Shown piece by piece: positions 51,008 to 51,027 of a DNA stretch of 64,000 bases (position 1 is its first letter; each line of letters begins with the position of its first letter). The position numbers and the translations under genes are program-made. The stretch is taken from the NCBI RefSeq assembly GCF_003334405.1, contig NZ_QOWM01000003.1; one strand, written 5' to 3'. This DNA comes from Escherichia coli (GTDB taxonomy: Bacteria > Pseudomonadota > Gammaproteobacteria > Enterobacterales > Enterobacteriaceae). The notes beneath the pieces are model-generated. The model was not told where the DNA came from. It made no database searches and was given only the letters and a program-made list of their open reading frames with translations.

Positions 51008-51027
51008 TGCTGGTTATCTATCCAGTG
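51008..51027. promoter_or_regulatory. LexA (SOS) box upstream of cho
   Basis: Minus-strand reading CACTGGATAGATAACCAGCA; palindrome CTGG-N8-CCAG at 51010..51025, 16-31 bp upstream of the cho ATG; a noncanonical CTGG variant of the CTGT-N8-ACAG consensus. Confidence 0.6.

Follow-up and report, generated by a model that had tools for sequence, protein, structure and literature searches.

The LexA box of Escherichia coli cho is a catalogued SOS operator of ordinary strength that lies within a block conserved across Enterobacteriaceae

The cho upstream region

The window (i.e., the whole 64-kb stretch of DNA analyzed here) is from Escherichia coli and has the gene order spy-ves-cho-nadE-osmE-chbBC. 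The cho open reading frame (ORF), on the minus strand, encodes 295 amino acids from a GTG start, and its product scores 579.7 bits against the NCBIfam equivalog NF007833 ("excinuclease Cho"; cutoff, 367). The 3' ends of cho and of ves (plus strand, 49572..50147 in RefSeq) overlap convergently by 41 bp (50107..50147). In alignment, the nadE-cho spacer of the window is 100% identical to that of K-12 MG1655, so data published for K-12 apply directly to this locus. The features of the region, with their sources (HI, heterology index), are as follows:

50107..50994, minus strand: cho (ydjQ, b1741), the gene under control, encoding excinuclease Cho (ORF, RefSeq annotation, and NCBIfam NF007833)
51001..51004, minus strand: Shine-Dalgarno sequence GGAG, 6 nt before the cho GTG (G, G, A, and G kept in 68 to 75 of 79 loci)
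51008..51027, minus strand: 20-nt LexA (SOS) box CACTGGATAGATAACCAGCA (sequence, HI score, publication, and conservation)
51017..51018, minus strand: cho transcription start, at the center of the LexA box (SMRT-Cappable-seq)
51024..51032, minus strand: inferred extended -10 element TGTTACACT (TG, any base, and TACACT; phylogenetic footprint over 79 loci)
51047..51052, minus strand: T-run (TTTTTT), conserved and located where the -35 of the putative promoter would lie (phylogenetic footprint)

The plus strand at 51008..51027 reads TGCTGGTTATCTATCCAGTG, the reverse complement of the box. Its core, CTGG-N8-CCAG, occupies 51010..51025 on the minus strand and forms a perfect 4+4 inverted repeat; with the GTG start at 50994, the core is 16 to 31 nt upstream, counted from the first base of that codon. 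An earlier note on this DNA had described the same palindrome at the same distance from cho, and the sequence and coordinates bear it out. The site has the SOS-box frame (CTGGATAGATAACCAG) and dyad symmetry, with the 10 bases between CTG and CAG (GATAGATAAC) including seven A/T.

Score of the box and its chance expectation

Both strands of the 64-kb window were scanned with a Berg-von Hippel/Lewis-type HI, using a matrix derived from PMC3009722 (Table 4), which lists 17 E. coli LexA boxes besides that of cho, so that the cho box was scored leave-one-out. With an HI of 7.93, the cho box is the best site in the window and the only one with an HI of ≤8, a class for which simulated sequence yields 0.025 sites per window. 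The runner-up among independent sites (HI, 12.26) lacks the CAG. No second LexA box and no further SOS gene with an HI of <12 was found in this 64-kb scan; ydjM presumably lies just past the window end, as on the K-12 map. The bare pattern is no rarity, the window having 30 copies of CTG-N10-CAG (12 expected) and 3 of CTGG-N8-CCAG (0.61 expected). Both the HI obtained here and the published value (7.5) fall under the value of about 15 that serves as the working cutoff for genes repressed by LexA (PMC11002266).

Among the 18 published boxes, the cho box ranks 12th by leave-one-out HI, a mid-range position that does not fit the earlier description of the operator as weak. Published HI values place it similarly (lexA, 7.4; cho, 7.5; ruvA, 7.6; uvrD, 8.5; dinB, 9.4; and polB, 13), with cho scoring better than uvrD, dinG, ftsK, dinB, and polB (PMC11228462). 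The largest single term in its HI is the central G (3.1); G6 costs 1.82 units and C15 costs 0.57, together 2.4 of the 7.9. The T and A of CTGT and ACAG had been called invariant, a view contradicted by the published set, in which the fourth core base is G in three boxes (ruvA, cho, and dinG) and the thirteenth is C in seven. The bases that are invariant across the 18 boxes are the TG of CTG and the CAG, with the C of CTG present in 17. Scans for LexA boxes should therefore not take CTGT/ACAG as invariant.

LexA control of cho in the literature

The original evidence on cho reportedly came from Northern analysis in lexA+, lexA(Def), and lexA(Ind-) strains. A 25-mer, TACACTGGATAGATAACCAGCATTC, appears as the LexA motif of cho in a study of sequences upstream of UV-induced genes (PMC3009722 Table 4), and a 2019 review lists cho (ydjQ) under the heading "Known SOS box" (PMC6590174 Table 1), drawing on Fernandez de Henestrosa 2000 and Courcelle 2001. 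The LexA repressor has been stated to regulate cho transcription (PMC3820734), and cho expression was 5.1-fold dependent on LexA cleavage, as measured with lexA3, in the study that assigned its box an HI of 7.5 (PMC11228462 Table 1). The site is thus the cho LexA operator, as the earlier note had held: its exact sequence is in print, it is counted among the known SOS boxes, and cho expression depends on lexA.

Ciprofloxacin induces cho: the log2 fold change is 0.92 at 10 min and later reaches 1.59, i.e., at most about 3-fold (PMC11002266). With AZT, cho was not induced (0.77-fold) and the dependence on LexA cleavage was still present (PMC11228462). For Salmonella ydjQ, a single box with an HI of 6.69 and a 3.3-fold induction by nalidixic acid have been described, and a ydjQ-gfp fusion gave no fluorescence. 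PMC3413102 and PMC5521853 contain nothing on cho regulation, and a literature search that did not reach key primary papers found no LexA electrophoretic mobility shift assay (EMSA), footprint, or chromatin immunoprecipitation (ChIP) data on the cho operator. The cho LexA operator is already known and catalogued, and its strength is ordinary and unremarkable.

Comparison with known LexA boxes

The box is the same in sequence, gene, and position as the E. coli cho (ydjQ) LexA box of Fernandez de Henestrosa et al. (2000) and Courcelle et al. (2001), with no difference between them. Its nearest counterpart is the ruvAB box, CGCTGGATATCTATCCAGCA, which has the same CTGG-N8-CCAG form, is identical at 16 of 20 bases, and has nearly the same published HI (7.6 versus 7.5). 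The two differ in promoter context: an alternative sigma factor has been suspected for the ruvA promoter, whereas the cho box overlaps a putative extended -10 element of the sigma-70 type. With the consensus gammaproteobacterial SOS box, TACTG(TA)5CAGTA (e.g., umuDC, sulA, and recA), the cho box shares the CTG-N10-CAG frame, the A/T-rich spacer, and the location at a promoter, as well as repression by LexA with release through RecA-stimulated self-cleavage. It departs from this consensus at five positions (C1, G6, G10, C15, and C19), for a predicted affinity that is mid-range and not high.

The site, which controls the back-up nucleotide-excision nuclease Cho, is a textbook member of the E. 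coli SOS regulon, and it adds mainly confirmation. The conserved block described below, the freedom of the fourth and thirteenth core positions, and the location of the published transcription start in the center of the box are what the present analysis contributes, a small gain.

Conservation of the box in Enterobacteriaceae

Scanning GTDB representative genomes for the Cho protein yielded 80 loci, of which 79 had upstream sequence and were used. They cover Escherichia, Salmonella, Citrobacter, Enterobacter, Klebsiella, Raoultella, Kosakonia, Cedecea, Buttiauxella, and other genera of Enterobacteriaceae. The best LexA-like site is in the same place in all 79 loci, ending 11 to 16 nt before the start codon; likewise, all 79 have a CTG-N10-CAG upstream of cho, ending 13 to 18 nt before the start codon. 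When the window is counted with these loci (80 sequences), the core takes the form CTGT..ACAG in 27, CTGG..CCAG in 24, CTGG..ACAG in 24, CTGT..CCAG in 4, and CTGT..TCAG in 1.

A phylogenetic footprint, i.e., a per-column profile over the 79 loci anchored on the box, revealed which bases are held. CTG and CAG are each invariant (79/79), as is the A before CTG (79/79), and an A two bases past CAG is present in 77 loci. The fourth core base is G in 48 loci and T in 31, and the thirteenth is A in 50, C in 28, and T in 1. The spacer of the box and the flanking intergenic columns carry nearly no information. Because the fourth and thirteenth positions switch freely among genera, they look tolerated rather than tuned.

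Within E. coli, the exact 36-mer around the box is present in 5,069 of 5,426 complete genomes, and most of the changes in the variants sampled are located upstream of the box, in the promoter spacer. Two of these variants alter the box itself. In the clinical E. coli isolate 538 (NZ_OW967795.1), CACTTGATAG... replaces CACTGGATAG... at the equivalent of window position 51023, so that the left-arm CTG loses its invariant G and the HI goes up from 7.9 to 11.5; the T-run of this isolate is also 1 nt shorter. This sequence may be a natural operator-constitutive cho allele. E. coli Z1322HEC0001 (NZ_CP148583.1) has TATACT for TACACT at the equivalent of window position 51027, which improves the -10 hexamer and the LexA box alike (HI, 6.5); about half of the other genera have the same state.

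Promoter architecture and transcription start

A cho-only transcript (operon "b1741") detected by SMRT-Cappable-seq starts at K-12 position 1,823,491, in the forward direction (PMC6131387, Supplementary Data 2). By way of the MG1655 cho start (1,823,515) and the 100% alignment, this transcription start site (TSS) corresponds to window position 51018, the tenth base of the 20-mer, or to 51017 should the published coordinate be 0-based rather than 1-based. The TSS supplements of Kim 2012 contain no cho start site.

A scan of 50900..51300 for promoter and terminator consensus sequences returned nothing. The footprint, by contrast, points to an extended -10 element, TGTTACACT, which such a scan would miss because there is no good -35. 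Its columns read TGnTAyACT overall: within TGnTAnACT, T is present in 76 of the 79 loci, G in 79, and the following T, A, A, C, and T each in 79. The last four bases of the element are the first four of the 20-nt box. It lies 6 to 7 nt upstream of the published TSS, within the 5 to 8 nt expected for a sigma-70 extended -10 promoter, and fits the pattern of TG at -15/-14 and a hexamer carrying A at -11 and T at -7. On these sequence grounds, it is probably the -10 region of the cho promoter.

At the -35 position of this putative promoter is the T-run, with T in 79, 77, 75, 73, 65, and 59 of the 79 loci at its six positions and conserved C residues flanking it; as a -35 hexamer it fits the consensus poorly. 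The box, the overlapping extended -10 element, and the T-run at -35 form one conserved block across Enterobacteriaceae.

The T-run belongs to a longer sequence, GCCTCTTTTTT (51047..51059, minus strand), which is conserved across Enterobacteriaceae together with a C six bases downstream of the T-run, and which stays at -35 also in loci with another upstream gene or terminator. Candidate roles for it are a poor -35, an UP-like element, and a site for another factor; CCGCCTCTTTT of cho has been listed under a second motif that is overrepresented upstream of UV-induced genes (PMC3009722). We also considered the T-run as the tail of a nadE terminator and rejected this idea: no hairpin abuts it in E. 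coli, Klebsiella has a separate terminator upstream of it, and the upstream gene is a different one in Cedecea and Buttiauxella.

A single operator at the cho promoter

We propose, with a probability of roughly 0.93, that the cho promoter has one LexA operator, this palindrome, which acts through a steric block of RNA polymerase. The proposal draws on the sequence, score, conservation, and TSS overlap obtained here and on published LexA dependence and damage inducibility; from these we infer the -10 assignment and the steric occlusion. A LexA dimer would sit on CTG-N10-CAG, and the operator would cover the 3' end of the -10 hexamer as well as the discriminator and +1, the standard geometry of steric occlusion by LexA. 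Four bases of the extended -10 element also belong to the left arm of the box, and the TSS is at mid-box, so bound LexA would be expected to shut RNA polymerase out of the -10 region and start site. Upon DNA damage, RecA filaments would trigger LexA self-cleavage and the operator would empty; cho would then be transcribed with a leader of about 24 nt, the GGAG ribosome site, and the GTG start. The intermediate operator strength (HI of about 7.5 to 7.9) fits modest induction and detectable basal transcription.

That the palindrome might instead serve as an RNA or DNA hairpin (i.e., a leader structure, an attenuator, or a terminator for nadE read-through) and not as a protein site is suggested by its perfect 4+4 inverted repeat and by the fact that a nadE-cho read-through transcript would include it. 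We regard this as very improbable: the stem is just 4 bp with a loop of 8 nt, the fourth and thirteenth bases fail to pair in 29 of the 80 sequences, and no terminator-like site was found in 50900..51300. Moreover, the cho transcript begins in the middle of the repeat and so carries one arm only, and the leader from the TSS folds no better than shuffled sequences (z = +1.2). Hardly any weight goes, either, to a chance palindrome or to a site without operator function, conserved wholly on account of the overlapping -10 element. CTG-N10-CAG alone is frequent in the window, and the overlap of the left arm with the -10 hexamer means that part of its conservation could be promoter driven. The right arm, however (CAG and the A two bases on), is downstream of the TSS, where it has no promoter role, and yet is conserved in 77 to 79 of the 79 loci; in addition, no other site in the window matches its full-matrix score, and LexA-dependent cho expression has been published (PMC11228462 and PMC3820734).

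A further reading accepts the operator and takes the G and C at core positions four and thirteen as marks of a specially weakened site that gives cho an unusual, late induction timing. Changing both bases would lower the HI from 7.93 to 5.53 in this matrix, and the induction of cho is modest (PMC11002266). Against this, ruvA also has CTGG..CCAG, CCAG is found in 7 of the 18 known boxes, and the HI is mid-range. "Weak or late," as the earlier note had put it, pairs opposites, as lower LexA affinity goes with earlier derepression (PMC9578287): early promoters have higher published HI values, and the late sulA and umuD have low ones (PMC5999292; cho is outside the assay set of Culyba 2018). Nor does lateness agree with the induction of cho already seen 10 min after ciprofloxacin, in a multi-omics study in which HI correlated with amplitude and not with timing (PMC11002266). 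A specially weakened operator is thus unlikely, although less so than either a hairpin or a chance repeat.

nadE-cho read-through and the intergenic spacer

SMRT-Cappable-seq also described a "novel" nadE|cho read-through transcript from the nadE promoter (K-12 TSS 1,822,427; PMC6131387), which corresponds to 50107..52051 on the minus strand of the window. Given this transcript, part of the cho mRNA need not begin at the cho promoter. No intrinsic terminator was detectable between nadE and cho by terminator scan or by folding of the spacer. RNA polymerase reading through from nadE would need to pass the LexA-occupied operator.

The single-operator reading could be extended in two directions, which taken together we consider a long shot. 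The non-consensus G of CTGG may have been kept in Escherichia, Salmonella, Citrobacter, and Klebsiella through the sharing of bases between operator and promoter, and bound LexA may act as a roadblock to nadE-cho read-through. This G is 1 to 2 nt downstream of the -10 hexamer (at promoter position -4 or -5, according to which base is the TSS), and a non-template G near there favors open-complex stability, according to work on sigma region 1.2 and the discriminator. If these ideas were true, the G would trade LexA affinity for promoter strength, and the roadblock would make read-through cho expression SOS dependent too.

The entire nadE-cho spacer folds far better than shuffled sequences (z = -4.96). 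It contains one of two matches in the window to the Rfam small RNA (sRNA) family ES036 (CssrF), at 51102..51144 and 58248..58290, both on the minus strand (42.9 and 55.5 bits, respectively; gathering score, 37.6). The match in the spacer adjoins a REP-type hairpin, GTTCACGCCGGATGCGGCGTGAAC (about 51160..51183), and the ES036 matches look less like a unique sRNA gene than like an intergenic repeat.
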